From an uncultured Methanobrevibacter sp. (GTDB lineage Archaea; Methanobacteriota; Methanobacteria; Methanobacteriales; Methanobacteriaceae), in NCBI GenBank assembly GCA_904501935.1, contig CAJGDA010000001.1, positions 1 to 32,875 of the forward strand: a DNA stretch of 32,875 bases, in the 5' to 3' direction. Positions 19,441 to 21,716 of this stretch are shown here, piece after piece. The notes under the pieces were generated by a model. The model ran no database searches, was not told the DNA's origin, and saw only the letters and a list, made by a program, of their open reading frames with translations. A program made the position numbers and the translations under genes. Each line of letters opens with the position of its first letter. Positions within the stretch are counted from its first letter, which is position 1.

Positions 19441-19815
19441 ATGAAAATCGATGGTGAAGTTACAACTGGTTTGGGAAAAGCAGCGTATTTCCTGTCACAG
19501 GAATTCTACACAAATGAGTTTAAGAAAAATTTAGGTTTTGTTCCGTTTCCAGGAACATTAAATGTTGTTGTAAGTGATGACTATTTGGATGGAATCAATG
19601 AAATCAAAAATACCTGTGAAAATTTAATCAAGCCAGATGAAGGCTTTGGTGCCGTAAAATATATTGAAGCAAAATTGAATGGTGTAATTGAAGGTGCCAT
19701 TGTATTTCCAGCAAAAACCACCCATGAAGAAAATTATTTGGAATTTATTGCTGAATGTAAATTAAGGGAAGAATTGAATCTCAAGGATGGGGATGTAGTT
19801 TCTCTTGAATTTTAA
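19441..19815 (+). CDS. ribK: CTP-dependent riboflavin kinase (stand-alone, no HTH domain)
   Basis: G.VTTGLGKA.YF, LGFVPFPGTLNV, P..T.H, LEFIA..KLREELNLKDGD; GAGG RBS. Confidence 0.9.
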   Translation: MKIDGEVTTGLGKAAYFLSQEFYTNEFKKNLGFVPFPGTLNVVVSDDYLDGINEIKNTCENLIKPDEGFGAVKYIEAKLNGVIEGAIVFPAKTTHEENYLEFIAECKLREELNLKDGDVVSLEF

Positions 19816-20015
19816 TTTTCATTTCTAATTTTTTCTACATCTTCAAGTGTTAGTTCTGTTTCTTTTTGTATTTCTTCGTTTGTTTTTCCTTCTTTTATCA
19901 TATATTTTGCCATTTTTTTCTTTCCTTCTTTAATACCTTCTTTAATACCTTCTTTTATTCCTTCTTTTATTCCTTCATCCTTTTGTCTTTGACCGTAATC
20001 GTATATAGCACTCAT
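19812..20015 (-). CDS. Putative in-frame intragenic small protein (67 aa, Rpn-small-like)
   Basis: Internal TAGGTGGAAAAATG on the minus strand (RBS 20020-20025, ATG 20015), in frame with the full gene. Product MSAIYDYGQRQKDEGIKEGIKE...KIRNEN. Confidence 0.55.
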   Translation of the reverse strand: MSAIYDYGQRQKDEGIKEGIKEGIKEGIKEGKKKMAKYMIKEGKTNEEIQKETELTLEDVEKIRNEN

Positions 20016-20675
20016 TTTTCCACCTAATGCATCACATATAGCTGTTTTTTTATCTCCATCTTCTAAAAATTTATCTGCTAATAAATAAGCAATACTTTTT
20101 ACAAGATTATTTACCTTATATTTTTCTAAATCAATAGATAATATTAAATTAACGGATTTTTCAATTTGATGTTCTTGTGTATTTTTACTACCCATAATTG
20201 GCACTAATGATAAATCAATTAATTCATAGTCACTGATTTCTTTATTATTTTTAATTTTAGTTTCAATATTATTTATAATGATATCTCCGTCTTCATCCAT
20301 AAAAGAATAGACATCAAATTTGAATTTAATTGAATCGCCAATAATGTGAATAATCTTTTTTGCTACTTCAGCAGTGCTAATTACTGCTAATTTAACTTCT
20401 TTTTTTGTTTTCTTTTTAAAGTTTACCATTGAAAAGTATGCTAAAAATCTGTTTTTATCATTTATATCTATAGATGTACTTTGAAATTCAATTATATAAA
20501 TTACATCATCTAATTCAATTATTATATCTGCAATTAGTACTGATGCATTTATAAAACGTATTTCTGATGGATTTAACTTTTTCTTTTTTGATTCTATGTT
20601 AATTCGCTTTAAAAGTACTTCTACCTCTTCTTCGCTCACATCTTTAAAAAGTAGGTCTTCGTGTTTGCTAACCAT
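19812..20675 (-). CDS. Rpn/YhgA-like PD-(D/E)XK nuclease (putative transposase) family protein
   Basis: HEDLLFK N-terminus, catalytic-like AD...IIEFQS (D..ExQ), DKNRF..Y, C-terminal (EGIK)n repeats and MAKYM...EEIQKET.LT..DV tail. Visibly lower GC than its neighbours. Confidence 0.7.
   Translation of the reverse strand: MVSKHEDLLFKDVSEEEVEVLLKRINIESKKKKLNPSEIRFINASVLIADIIIELDDVIYIIEFQSTSIDINDKNRFLAYFSMVNFKKKTKKEVKLAVISTAEVAKKIIHIIGDSIKFKFDVYSFMDEDGDIIINNIETKIKNNKEISDYELIDLSLVPIMGSKNTQEHQIEKSVNLILSIDLEKYKVNNLVKSIAYLLADKFLEDGDKKTAICDALGGKMSAIYDYGQRQKDEGIKEGIKEGIKEGIKEGKKKMAKYMIKEGKTNEEIQKETELTLEDVEKIRNEN
19924..19976. repeat. 12-bp tandem repeat encoding (EGIK)x4
   Basis: ccttctttaata x2, ccttcttttatt x2, then partial ccttc. 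Confidence 0.9.
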
Positions 20676-20814
20676 AAAATCACTTTTTTTAGATTATGTG
20701 TTCTTATTTTATTTATAATATTATTTAAATTGCTCAGTTATTAATAATAACAATTTTACATTCTTTAAACAATTTTTTAAGCTCAAAACAATTTATACAC
20801 GAAAACAATCATAA

Positions 20815-20834
20815 CCACAAAGTATTTTATATAT
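20815..20834 (+). promoter_or_regulatory. Archaeal BRE/TATA promoter of the riboswitch-ribB transcript
   Basis: cacaaagta-TTTTATATAT (20825-20834), about 20-25 nt upstream of the aptamer 5' end. Confidence 0.55.
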
Positions 20835-20851
20835 GATTAATATAACTGTTA

Positions 20852-20982
20852 ATATTTACTCGGGGCGGGGTGCAATTCCCCACCGGTGGTGATTTTGTAA
20901 AAATAAGTCCACGAGCACGATTAAGTGTTGATTTGGTGAGAATCCAAAACCGACGGTGATAGTCCGGATGGAAGAGAAATAT
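20852..20982 (+). ncRNA. FMN riboswitch (RFN element) aptamer
   Basis: Conserved RFN blocks in order: CTCGGGGCGGGGTGCAATTCCCCACCGGTGGT...AAGTCCACGAGC...GTTGATTTGGTGAGAATCCAAAACCGACGGT..TAGTCCGGATGGAAGAG. P1 = 20852-20861 with 20974-20982. Directly upstream of ribB. Confidence 0.93.
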
Positions 20983-21032
20983 GTAATTAGTTATTTTTAG
21001 CCCTGGTTCTAGTAAATATAGGAGATATTACT

Positions 21033-21716
21033 ATGAATCAAGAAACAAATTTAGATAAGGCTCTAGAAGCTATTAGAAACGGCGAGTTTGTACTCGTTTT
21101 TGATGATGATGACAGGGAAGGCGAAGTCGATATGATTATCGCTTCCGAATTTGTAACCCCTAAATCCGTTGCAACCATGAGAAATGATGCAGGCGGATTA
21201 ATCTGCAACTGTTTGCATTCTGATTTTTGTGATGCAATTCATTTACCTTTCATGGTAGACATCATGAAGGCAGCAACAGAAAAGTATCCGGAACTTGCTA
21301 AATTGGCACCGACCGATATTCCATATGATGAGAGGTCATCATTTTCCATATGGACCAACCACAGAAAATCATTCACTGGCGTAACCGACCATGACAGAGC
21401 AATGACCATTAGTGAAATGGCATTAATGATGAAAGAAGAAAGATTTGATGAATTCGGGGCTACTTTTAGATCACCTGGTCACGTATGTCTTTTAAGAGGG
21501 GCAGATGGCCTTGTGAAAAATAGAAGAGGACACACAGAAATAGGTCTTGCTTTGTGTGAAATGGCTGGCGTTACTCCTGTTTGTGTAGTTTGTGAAATGA
21601 TGGACGGTGAAACCGGACAAGCTACATCAGTTGCTGATGCTCGCAAATATGCAGAAGAAAATAATTTGGTCTTGCTTAAAGGCGAAGACATCATCAATAA
21701 ATACATAGAGGAATAA
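21033..21716 (+). CDS. ribB: 3,4-dihydroxy-2-butanone-4-phosphate synthase
   Basis: FDDDDREGEVD, DAGGLIC, PYDERSSFS (archaeal-type insert), TGVTDHDRA, FRSPGHV, RRGHTE, CEMM motifs. Confidence 0.95.
   Translation: MNQETNLDKALEAIRNGEFVLVFDDDDREGEVDMIIASEFVTPKSVATMRNDAGGLICNCLHSDFCDAIHLPFMVDIMKAATEKYPELAKLAPTDIPYDERSSFSIWTNHRKSFTGVTDHDRAMTISEMALMMKEERFDEFGATFRSPGHVCLLRGADGLVKNRRGHTEIGLALCEMAGVTPVCVVCEMMDGETGQATSVADARKYAEENNLVLLKGEDIINKYIEE

Follow-up and report, generated by a model that had tools for sequence, protein, structure and literature searches.

The leader of ribB in this uncultured Methanobrevibacter is likely an archaeal copy of the proteobacterial ribB-type FMN riboswitch, predicted to act as an FMN-dependent OFF switch on translation initiation. 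We regard the switch as real and probably functional, and the copy was probably acquired by horizontal transfer. Sequences, conservation and covariation, homology to E. coli and model energetics are the direct results, and from them we infer a response to the ligand, occlusion of the ribosome and function in an archaeon. The mechanism is already known; its spread and re-wiring in archaea are what is noteworthy.

When FMN is bound, the aptamer would lock P1 (20852-61 with 20974-82) together with J1/2, leaving 21004-21019, 3′ of a U tract, free to pair with 21025-21040. The resulting hairpin b would bury the ribB start codon and codons 2 and 3, with the Shine-Dalgarno sequence in its loop. Without FMN, the platform would invade the aptamer from both ends: GCCCUGG (21000-06) would pair with UC plus J1/2 (20860-66) as the anti-P1 core c2, AGUAAAUAU (21011-19) would in the window species additionally pair with the P1 5′ strand (c1), and the purine-rich P1 3′ strand would pair with the U-rich 20992-98 in an anti*-P1-like helix. 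These pairings would take away the base of hairpin b, in the window species also most of its 5′ arm, and ribosome access would become cheaper. The E. coli ribB switch has matching on and off stems, which makes the mechanism a familiar one.

The aptamer, its gene and its promoter

Within the window (the whole stretch of 32,875 nucleotides analysed here; all features below lie on its forward strand), cmscan places an FMN aptamer of family RF00050, with helices P1-P6, at 20852-20983. It scores 112.5 bits against a gathering score of 66.2 (E = 1.1e-25) and covers model positions 1-138 of 138; in the alignment, P2-P6 and the junctions match the six-helix architecture with its conserved junction nucleotides. 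P1 (pairing a) joins the 5′ strand ATATTTACTC (20852-20861; from sequence, cmscan and folding), also the 5′ strand of the species-specific c1, to the 3′ strand GAGAAATAT (20974-20982; from sequence). It has nine base pairs with A20858 bulged, and the ungapped cmscan register contains three non-canonical pairs. Three positions of the window's 5′ strand depart from the genus consensus (A)ATACGTTCTC.

Of 100 other genomes of the genus, 95 keep the aptamer, and a family sample has it in 42 of 120 other genomes from 10 of 27 genera; scores span 103-134 bits across the 10 genera. In the genomes sampled, no family of the phylum other than Methanobacteriaceae was found to have the FMN switch. Our comparative set holds 127 leaders from 10 genera of this one archaeal family, 95 of them from Methanobrevibacter. 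Judged by sequence, a complete bacterial-type FMN switch, aptamer and platform, appears fixed in about 95% of sampled Methanobrevibacter and in nine other genera of the family.

The gene behind the aptamer is ribB (21033-21716, start codon ATG at 21033-21035), an open reading frame for an archaeal-type 3,4-dihydroxy-2-butanone-4-phosphate synthase of 227 aa (PF00926, 198 bits). The switch is present as one copy per genome with ribB always the gene behind, located 3′ of the aptamer in 127 of 128 leaders. The RibB proteins linked to the riboswitch in eight other genera share 62-70% identity with E. coli RibB; that of the window shares 29.6%. In Methanobrevibacter the leader and about the first four codons are attached to an archaeal-type ribB, not a bacterial-type one. 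The host's own genome carries an archaeal RNase P RNA (212.6 bits).

Upstream sequences aligned on P1 as anchor reveal a putative archaeal TATA box, TTTATATA (20826-20833), within a promoter block conserved throughout the genus (..AAAGTATTTTATA..). Archaeal promoters follow a spacing rule from TATA box to start, and together with the promoter geometry it implies a transcript start at about 20854-20858. The two outermost bases of helices a and c may then lie 5′ of the start, and P1 and c1 could be shortened in the window. Each of 24 RNA-library runs holds a small share of the stretch (0.04-0.09), mostly from relatives, and contigs from four of the runs were uninformative on starts, ends or expression level. 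One X9 RNA-library contig skips 20979-21018.

Hairpin b and helix c

A sequence-only reading of this DNA had proposed the three pairings a, b and c, and all three are present where it placed them. Besides the two P1 strands, the strings that it named are TAGTAAATAT (21010-21019), AGGAG (21020-21024) and ATATTACTA (21025-21033) in hairpin b, and CGGGGC (20861-20866) and GCCCTG (21000-21005) in helix c. Hairpin b is the minimum-free-energy fold of 20984-21045 and extends outward to U21004-A21040. Its 5′ arm is UGGUUCUAGUAAAUAU (21004-21019), of which 21011-21019 doubles as the c1 3′ strand, and its 3′ arm is AUAUUACUAUGAAUCA (21025-21040), which includes the start codon and codons 2 and 3; both arms were defined by folding and conservation. 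In the start codon, A21033 and G21035 pair and U21034 bulges out; the Shine-Dalgarno sequence AGGAG, placed by folding, is the 5-nt loop.

Of the 127 leaders, 115 retain hairpin b, among them 90 of the 95 from the genus; the other 12 have the aptamer but no hairpin b. In alignment A1, which comprises 54 of the 89 distinct platforms, 90.6% of its cells are paired versus 26-52% in slid controls. Five of its 12 pairs have changed on both sides, in 17 cells, a number reached by none of 500 shuffles; UAGUA:UACUA of the genus, for instance, becomes UGGUA:UACCA in g17 and CAUG:CAUG in g18. RNAalifold returned no consensus structure for A1, probably due to the long gapped loop, and explicit pair counts were used instead. 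The loop is 5 nt in the window versus 11-14 nt in most relatives, so the tight loop of the earlier reading does not hold as a general feature. TTCTAG..CTAGAA palindromes in g13 and g16 were considered as a DNA operator for a protein. This was rejected because their spacing varies (3, 6 and 9 nt), which fits an RNA hairpin.

The core of helix c is c2, in which UCGGGGC (20860-20866), the last two P1 bases plus J1/2, pairs with GCCCUGG (21000-21006; from sequence and conservation). U21004, G21005 and G21006 of the latter strand also form the base of hairpin b. Across the 127 leaders 868 of 889 c2 cells (GCCCUG:J1/2) are paired, versus 20-56% when the strands are slid. The helix has nearly no true compensatory change (one U-A cell), and its terminal pair is broken in nine leaders by a joint C->G and G->A. 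Another candidate, the P1 3′ strand as a classical anti-sequester of the hairpin 5′ arm, offers 4-5 bp (AGAA(U):(A)UUCU) and was rejected on inspection, since alongside c2 it would require a pseudoknot with a zero-length loop.

The outer part, c1, behaves differently. The 9-mer AGTAAATAT has three matches on both strands of the 32.9-kb window versus 0.74 expected, and as two of these are the arms themselves, our own scaling puts chance within a platform of about 50 nt at ~6e-4. The exact 9-bp c1 is specific to the window's species (1 of 95 genus leaders), and most relatives in the genus have just 3 bp. Mean duplex energies are -2.3 kcal/mol for cognate, -1.9 for non-cognate and -2.3 for shuffled strands; with these about equal, c1 was rejected as a general helix. 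Comparable helices occur in g17 (3 of 3 leaders, -8.6 to -9.0 kcal/mol, p_shuffle <= 0.01) and in g18 (-8.6 kcal/mol). Compared with L080, whose platform is identical, the three substitutions in the window's P1 5′ strand each convert a mismatch against AGUAAAUAU into a Watson-Crick pair.

The core of the earlier switch logic, in which FMN favors P1 and hairpin b (OFF) and the 5′ side of the aptamer otherwise pairs with the platform (ON), is supported by hairpin b covariation, c2 conservation, the opening costs below and homology to E. coli ribB. Its exact 9-bp c1 does not generalize. The covariation that it had proposed to look for exists as compensatory change in b, while c2 is conserved with nearly no compensation and c1 is not conserved.

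Energetics, the U tract and alternative explanations

Fold stability by itself is unremarkable: 20984-21045 folds with z = -1.04 (27 of 200 shuffles at least as stable) and 20852-21045 with z = -1.23 (21 of 200). Nearest-neighbour energies of the competing states are nearly isoenergetic, at -47.1 kcal/mol unconstrained, -46.5 with c1+c2 forced and -45.2 with P1 forced, in a model that omits aptamer tertiary structure and ligand energy. Opening the ribosome site of the window costs 9.7 kcal/mol with P1 forced versus 3.3 with P1 penalised, the modelled "apo" state being a soft penalty of 8 kcal/mol per P1 pair. Forcing P1 raises the cost by more than 1 kcal/mol in 117 of 127 leaders and by more than 2 kcal/mol in 104; the window's difference of 6.4 kcal/mol is among the largest of the 127, with a genus mean of 3.9. 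In the model, the c2 fold is better than the P1 fold by 5-13 kcal/mol once GCCCUGR is transcribed (in all nine leaders tested of the 127). In the window this gap shrinks to -0.8 kcal/mol when hairpin b is able to form, showing an energetic coupling of hairpin b to the competition of P1 with c2. The mean unpaired probability of the start codon in the genus is 0.14 in the ligand-free ensemble versus 0.06 with P1 forced. As the codon is mainly paired even without ligand, the modelled switch would be a change in opening cost and no clean melt.

Directly 5′ of GCCCUG lies the U-rich UAUUUUU (20992-20998, from sequence; T5 at 20994-20998), a candidate archaeal oligo-U terminator. The tract is U5-8 in most archaeal copies. 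A run of at least five U within 10 nt 5′ of (G)CCCUG occurs in 118 of 127 archaeal leaders versus none of 77 bacterial loci with the platform, against a background of 8% of 10-nt windows in upstream non-coding DNA; it is missing in leader L024 and falls below five U in eight further leaders. This conservation in archaeal copies and absence from bacterial ones lends some weight to the earlier suggestion that the T run acts as an archaeal terminator. The accompanying remark that a bacterial hairpin-plus-U terminator is absent was borne out, with no terminator-like site in 20600-21200. In minimum-free-energy structures UAUUUUU pairs with AGAAAUA (20975-20981) as helix d, a low-complexity A/U pairing. 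Four of the five tract bases are 0.91-0.95 unpaired in the model with P1 forced, and about 0.05-0.1 unconstrained.

Archaeal transcription terminates at U tracts with the help of aCPSF1, and Rho is not known from archaea. The main or an extra output of the switch could be attenuation at the transcript level at 20994-20998, where the U tract would be exposed with FMN, masked by the P1 3′ strand without it, and would replace the Rho-dependent arm of the ancestral bacterial switch; the accessible text of PMC5499598 and PMC11571811 describes Rho-dependent termination in the E. coli ribB leader. The near-universal archaeal U run and its modelled exposure under P1 favor this reading, which we nonetheless consider unlikely. 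Intrinsic termination occurs with the U tract still in the RNA:DNA hybrid, so that RNA pairing would be no mask at that moment, and some leaders lack the full run. Pairing with the purine-rich P1 3′ strand would be a simple explanation of the tract as well, and attenuation leaves the conserved hairpin b unexplained. Contigs from two RNA-library runs of relatives bridge the tract into ribB (20869-21125 and 20953-21125), which means that read-through molecules exist, barring DNA carry-over. We give somewhat less credence still to a fuller, speculative history. The U5-8 tract and, in Methanobrevibacter, the leader on an archaeal-type ribB look archaeal. The Rho-dependent attenuator of an acquired ribB riboswitch might have been rebuilt as an FMN-gated oligo-U termination or cleavage signal, possibly aCPSF1/FttA-assisted, hidden by the P1 3′ strand at low FMN and exposed with FMN, alongside the inherited translational block; the leader and about four codons would then have moved onto the native archaeal ribB in Methanobrevibacter. 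If true, control of archaeal transcription termination by a natural riboswitch would have its first example in this FMN-gated U tract; no description of riboswitch gating of an oligo-U terminator (aCPSF1/FttA-assisted) was found in the literature searched.

A different question is whether the full 15-bp helix c (c1+c2) is a working anti-sequester in the window species, giving it a sharper switch than its relatives. With c1+c2 forced, the fold is merely 0.6 kcal/mol above the minimum free energy, and the large opening-cost difference of the window, the three lineage-specific substitutions that each create a c1 pair and the c1-like helices in g17 and g18 all point that way. P1 is weakened by these substitutions and left with 3 bp, a bulge and six A-U pairs, the predicted start at ~20854-20858 would cut c1 to 3-7 bp, and the c1 duplex (-5.4 kcal/mol) reaches at best p_shuffle = 0.035 in AU-rich sequence. 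Full c1 is also found in a single genus leader. We view this reading as doubtful, if less so than attenuation. Far less probable than any of these is a horizontally acquired relic, whose aptamer may bind FMN and whose platform has no regulatory role in the archaeal cell. The accessible text of Rodionova et al. (2017) would favor it, stating that riboflavin synthesis in Archaea is not controlled by FMN riboswitches (PMC5397151). Against it stand the high aptamer scores in all 10 genera, a platform conserved with compensatory changes, and the single copy per genome 5′ of ribB. The retention of leader and first codons on a different, archaeal-type ribB in Methanobrevibacter is difficult to account for unless selection acted. 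An FMN-dependent OFF switch on translation initiation remains our preferred reading.

Comparison with known systems

Natural archaeal riboswitch mechanisms are almost unstudied, a single one (fluoride) having been tested by experiment according to the accessible text of PMC8241225. The leader described here offers a concrete candidate regulator of riboflavin synthesis for the biology of gut and rumen methanogens. It may also serve as a natural experiment in which an RNA switch moved between domains: the part acting on translation was retained as far as the first codons, a U tract stands in place of the Rho-dependent part, and in Methanobrevibacter the leader was re-attached to an archaeal-type ribB. 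The novelty implied by the earlier reading was overstated, as FMN riboswitches in archaea had been noted before (PMC5473149, in its accessible text) and E. coli ribB has the same mechanism. Homology of the platform to E. coli ribB is decisive here; the earlier reading had re-derived a known mechanism in an archaeal copy.

The RF00050 aptamer family also includes Bacillus subtilis ribD, and B. subtilis was among the matching control genomes. There, according to the accessible text of PMC11571811, control relies on an antiterminator and on an intrinsic terminator hairpin with a U tract behind it. The window has no such G+C-rich hairpin with U tract in 20600-21200. As in archaeal oligo-U terminators (aCPSF1/FttA-assisted), it has a run of at least five U, here at one conserved leader position. 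The fluoride riboswitch of Thermococcus kodakarensis, of another ligand and aptamer class, is an ON switch for export genes, and no bacterial-homologous platform is known for it. It is presumed to be translational, and the accessible text of PMC8241225 names it as the sole natural archaeal riboswitch tested experimentally.

E. coli ribB (sroG) and its proteobacterial relatives have the same aptamer class as the window, and the E. coli leader has the same platform (GCCCUGAUUCUGGUAA...UUACCAUGAAUCA). The consensus common to the E. coli ribB group and the window is GCCCUG-RUUCU-RGUA ... UAC(C/U)AUGAAUCA, where the search pattern itself required AUGAAUCA, so that E. coli and the 77 bacterial loci contain it by design. 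Platform identity to E. coli is 36 of 52 columns for the window and 41 of 57 for genus g17. The motif was found in Enterobacterales, Vibrionaceae, Pasteurellaceae, Shewanella, Burkholderiales, Desulfovibrio-type and other bacteria and in Methanobrevibacter; Supplemental Fig. S3 of PMC11571811, to judge from the accessible text, compares platforms among species and may already show part of this conservation.

The two systems differ in several respects. Between aptamer and GCCCUG E. coli has ~60 nt with ..CACUCCUAAGACU and Rho sites, whereas the window has 16 nt ending in U5 and no Rho-type leader termination region (rut) like that of E. coli ribB. The Shine-Dalgarno sequence is in the loop in the window but paired with an upstream CUCCU in E. 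coli. Unlike the E. coli system, the host is an archaeon with an archaeal-type RibB.

The switching stems can be mapped one-to-one onto those probed experimentally in E. coli ribB. There, the accessible text of PMC11571811 assigns P1 and the sequestering stem to the OFF state and anti-P1 and anti*-P1 to the ON state, and reports nucleotides 218-227 as FMN-protected in RNase H probing. By our own mapping these would be AUUCUGGUAA, the counterpart of 21006-21015. From the same text we infer that the anti-P1 stem described there involves the 5′ extremity of the E. coli leader, which shares with the window the 7-bp c2 (GCCCUGR with UC plus J1/2). In both leaders the P1 3′ strand could pair alternatively with a downstream UUAUUUU-type segment; anti*-P1 of E. 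coli (AAUAACG:CGUUAUU by sequence, at 141-149 and 175-183 in the accessible text of PMC11571811) would be the counterpart of helix d, again low-complexity A/U. The E. coli counterpart of hairpin b is likewise a start-codon hairpin (-16.7 kcal/mol), and opening costs in that leader are 14.3 and 9.7 kcal/mol.

Aptamer, gene and host

The FMN aptamer (RF00050) occupies 20852-20983 on the forward strand as a full-length match, with 112.5 bits against a gathering score of 66.2, and is the single Rfam match above gathering score within the window. The next open reading frame, ribB (21033-21716, forward strand), encodes a DHBP synthase of 227 aa (PF00926, 198 bits). The host is an archaeon: its genome carries an archaeal RNase P RNA (212.6 bits), an archaeal riboflavin kinase (PF01982) is present, and Methanobrevibacter records have the same expression platform between aptamer and ribB start. 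The CTP-dependent kinase gene, ribK (19441-19815, forward strand, 120.8 bits), sits 1.2 kb 5′ of the riboswitch and shares its strand, with one divergent gene between them, so the two riboflavin genes are neighbors and the switch is on ribB only. The intervening 287-aa open reading frame (19812-20675, reverse strand) matches no Pfam family and has a short tandem EGIK repeat (EGIKEGIKEGIKEGIKEGKKK) close to its C-terminus.

Of 100 other genomes sampled from the genus, 95 contain RF00050, and in 94 the match exceeds the gathering score. A sample of the family Methanobacteriaceae gave 42 of 120 other genomes, representing 10 of 27 genera (designated by g-numbers here), and in a phylum sample the aptamer was confined to this family (61 of 135 genomes; three other families, 0 of 15). 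One Methanobrevibacter genome, G006, has two matches, one at the extreme end of a contig (C108:8-141); the other genomes have one each. Our leader set held 128 leaders, the window and 127 other loci, and the ribB start could be placed in 127; L128 was left out since its ribB start lies beyond the retrieved stretch.

Predicted start-codon sequestration and the competing helices

The sequence-only reading had proposed three mutually exclusive pairings: the aptamer stem P1 (20852-20861 with 20974-20982), a sequestering hairpin b (21010-21019 with 21025-21033, AGGAG loop 21020-21024), and an anti-sequestering helix c. Direct reading of the sequence bore out every string it quoted. When 20984-21045 is folded, hairpin b is the minimum-free-energy structure; it is longer than first seen, starting at U21004-A21040 and going inward. 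In this fold two of the three AUG bases, A and G, are paired, and the loop is the 5-nt AGGAG; the fold energy by itself is unremarkable (z = -1.0 and -1.2). With each platform folded alone, the start-codon A or G pairs with the arm 3′ of a GCCCUG motif in 115/127 leaders, and in 90/95 within the genus. The 12 leaders without hairpin b comprise one clade of four genus members, L071, L035, L039, and five of the seven g13 leaders, in which the arm after GCCCUG has a nearer partner.

Hairpin b is conserved and covaries. Its lower stem is invariant (UGRUUC with GAAUCA); in the upper stem both strands vary, the genus having UAGUA:UACUA, g17 UGGUA:UACCA, g18 CAUG:CAUG and g3 an AU-alternating stem. 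The alignment used for counting pairs held 54 of the 89 distinct platforms; it omitted those with more than 75 nt from GCCCUG to AUG and genus members past the first 28 distinct ones. Hairpin b cells were paired in 90.6% of cases, compared with 26-52% when the partner was slid, and double changes occurred in 5 of 12 pairs (17 cells, a count reached by 0 of 500 shuffles). RNAalifold returned no consensus structure on the same alignment. The fold, its recurrence across leaders and these compensatory changes favor the proposed sequestration of the start. The tight Shine-Dalgarno loop does not hold as a general feature, as the three inner pairs that tighten it in the window are not conserved and loops are 11-14 nt in most relatives.

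Two groups of leaders have their own arrangement here. The clade L016, L049, L056 and L090 keeps the aptamer, the U tract and GCCCUG and has lost hairpin b; its ribB begins AUGAGU / AUGAGUAAA (MSK..), and in folds a UUUCU 3′ of GCCCUG pairs weakly with the Shine-Dalgarno sequence instead. At g13 and g16 loci (such as L041 and L122) and in L071, the arm GAUUCUAG after GCCCUG has a second close partner, CUAGAAYC, which is like the start region CUAUGAAUC with one U removed and forms a local hairpin rivalling start-codon sequestration.

The two halves of helix c fared differently. The c2 half, in which UC and J1/2 pair with GCCCUGR, is paired in 868/889 cells versus 20-56% when slid. Its variation is nearly all one-sided and compatible (A/G opposite U, C/U opposite G), with one double change, U-A. 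About nine genus leaders (e.g. L007, L063, L067, L078) have AGGGG for AGGGC in J1/2 and ACCCUG for GCCCUG in the platform; this correlated C-to-G and G-to-A change breaks the last c2 pair and restores none. The exact 9-bp c1 half (20852-20860 with 21011-21019) occurs in the window only, among 95 genus leaders. The 9-mer complement occurs 3 times in the window, where 0.74 occurrences are expected; two of the 3 are the arms themselves, and such a match is unlikely to have arisen by chance. The window 5′ strand differs from the genus consensus at three bases, each of which mends a mismatch against AGUAAAUAU; L080 has a platform identical to that of the window and the consensus 5′ strand. Most genus leaders have the 5′ strand (A)AUACGUUCUC and form UAC:GUA only (3 bp, -1.1 kcal/mol). 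Mean c1 duplex energies are nearly equal for cognate (-2.3), non-cognate (-1.9) and shuffled (-2.3) arms, and c1 thus gave no general signal. Helices like c1 with other sequences do occur in g17 (3/3, -8.6 to -9.0 kcal/mol, p_shuffle ≤ 0.01) and g18 (-8.6 kcal/mol), and weaker ones in a few genus members (L004, L077, L086).

A promoter block common to the genus (..AAAGTATTTTATA..) includes a putative TATA box at 20826-20833 on the forward strand. Archaeal TATA boxes are usually centered about 26-27 nt upstream of the transcript start, which would place the start near 20854-20858 in the window and on the G of ACGUUCUC in relatives. If so, the RNA would begin directly with P1 and would lack the outermost two to six pairs of P1 and helix c.

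In the nearest-neighbor model, which leaves out tertiary structure and ligand energy, little energy separates the three states: -47.1 kcal/mol unconstrained, -46.5 with c1 and c2 forced, and -45.2 with P1 forced. Coupling was modeled in 9 of the 127 leaders (the window, three others of the genus, g18, two of g17, g8 and g16). Once GCCCUGR is transcribed, the c2-containing ensemble lies 5-13 kcal/mol below the P1-containing ensemble in 9/9. Adding the hairpin 3′ arm shrinks this gap to -0.8 kcal/mol in the window and to about -1 to -2 kcal/mol in the three other genus leaders, so the value of hairpin b would be about 9.8 kcal/mol when P1 is formed and 1.6 when c2 is formed. Such a state-dependent value is, in the model, what a coupled switch is expected to look like. 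Folding with and without P1 also favored the proposed switch: opening -14 to +13 around the window AUG costs 9.7 kcal/mol with P1 forced (a proxy for the ligand-bound state) and 3.3 with P1 penalized (ligand-free), and the difference exceeds 1 kcal/mol in 117/127 leaders and 2 kcal/mol in 104/127. The AUG is mostly paired even in ligand-free ensembles, with a genus mean unpaired probability of 0.14 versus 0.06 with P1 forced.

RibB type and a proposed transfer of the leader

Two types of RibB stand behind these leaders (window 21033-21716; L032-L057, L134, L135). The 13 riboswitch-linked RibB proteins compared from g3, g5, g8, g10, g13, g16, g17 and g18 are of bacterial type and share 62-70% identity with E. 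coli RibB; the 5 from the genus and g19, that of the window included, are of archaeal type and share 26-32%. Genera g17 and g18 hold a second ribB elsewhere; it is of archaeal type (57% and 56% identity to that of the window), has no riboswitch and begins MIND/MIDE... Only the bacterial type is present in g8, g16 and g5, and none was found in the window's own genome (82% complete). The window RibB carries an extra MNQETN.. ahead of the shared ..DKALEAIRNGE, and this MNQE.. matches the bacterial-type genes of g13 and g16. On the simplest reading, riboswitch and ribB seem to have been acquired horizontally, after which, in the genus, the leader and about four first codons (MNQE) moved onto the native gene. 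Such a transfer, codons included, would point to selection on the 3′ arm of hairpin b.

The U tract and the E. coli ribB switch

A pattern scan with one genome per species gave at least 120 stretches. Among the 80 matches listed, 77 are bacterial, including Enterobacterales, Vibrionaceae, Pasteurellaceae, Shewanella, Burkholderiales, Desulfovibrio-type and others, and 3 are Methanobrevibacter. A run of at least five U within 10 nt 5′ of (G)CCCUG (20994-20998 in the window) is found in 118/127 archaeal leaders, against a background of 8% of 10-nt windows in archaeal upstream DNA, and in 0/77 bacterial leaders among the matches listed, which mostly read ..CUCCUAAGACUG there. The U tract may be there only to pair with the purine-rich P1 3′ strand; the folds do pair 20975-81 with 20992-98. 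It may instead be an archaeal termination signal, replacing the Rho-dependent arm that a passage of PMC5499598 gives the bacterial ribB switch. No hairpin-type terminator was found in the window leader region, in keeping with the sequence-only reading. The RNA-library contigs, mostly from relatives, do not show transcript ends; two of them, from two runs, span the U tract into ribB. One contig of run X9 joins 20978 to 21019 and so omits 40 bases: the spacer, the U tract, GCCCUG and the greater part of the hairpin 5′ arm. A relative's sequence or an assembly artefact may explain this.

Published accounts touch on this element from several sides. Portions of the literature describe FMN riboswitches as 'occasionally present' in Archaea (PMC5473149), cite an Infernal annotation of Methanobrevibacter ruminantium (PMC5780412), and state, in part of PMC5397151, that archaeal riboflavin synthesis is not under FMN riboswitches and that Methanobacteriales lost the DNA-binding domain of RbkR. 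In the full-text literature searched we found no description of an archaeal FMN riboswitch expression platform, its E. coli ribB homology, or the U tract.

An annotated FMN riboswitch precedes ribB in 5425/5426 E. coli genomes in a distant blastn search with the aptamer. The E. coli leader (one record) has the same platform, ..GCCCUGAUUCUGGUAA, a loop with GAGG, and UUACCAUGAAUCAG, with the same 7-bp c2, the same hairpin (-16.7 kcal/mol), and opening costs of 14.3 and 9.7 kcal/mol. Its platform columns are identical to the window in 36/52 and to g17 in 41/57. As outlined in sections of PMC11571811, the OFF state combines P1 with a sequestering stem over the Shine-Dalgarno sequence and AUG, and in the ON state anti-P1 and anti*-P1 (141-149 with 175-183) put both aptamer extremities into helices; residues 218-227 are protected in an FMN-dependent manner. 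By our own mapping these residues are AUUCUGGUAA, the counterpart of window 21006-21015, and anti*-P1 is AAUAACG:CGUUAUU, whose putative window counterpart is the pairing of the P1 3′ strand with the U-rich segment. Many of the Enterobacterales among the listed bacterial loci (L143-L221) also carry ..(A)CUCCU(A/C)AG.. just 5′ of GCCCUG. This segment complements the GAGG Shine-Dalgarno sequence and is absent from archaeal copies, so direct Shine-Dalgarno pairing may have been lost there.

Given this homology and the published E. coli stems, the three pairings of the sequence-only reading have named equivalents in a known switch: P1, the sequestering stem and anti-P1. The core of its interpretation was right; it was over-specific and claimed too much novelty. 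Judged by sequence comparison, the element belongs, as an archaeal example, to the known ribB type of translational FMN switch, with two archaeal twists worth attention, the U tract and the leader transfer.
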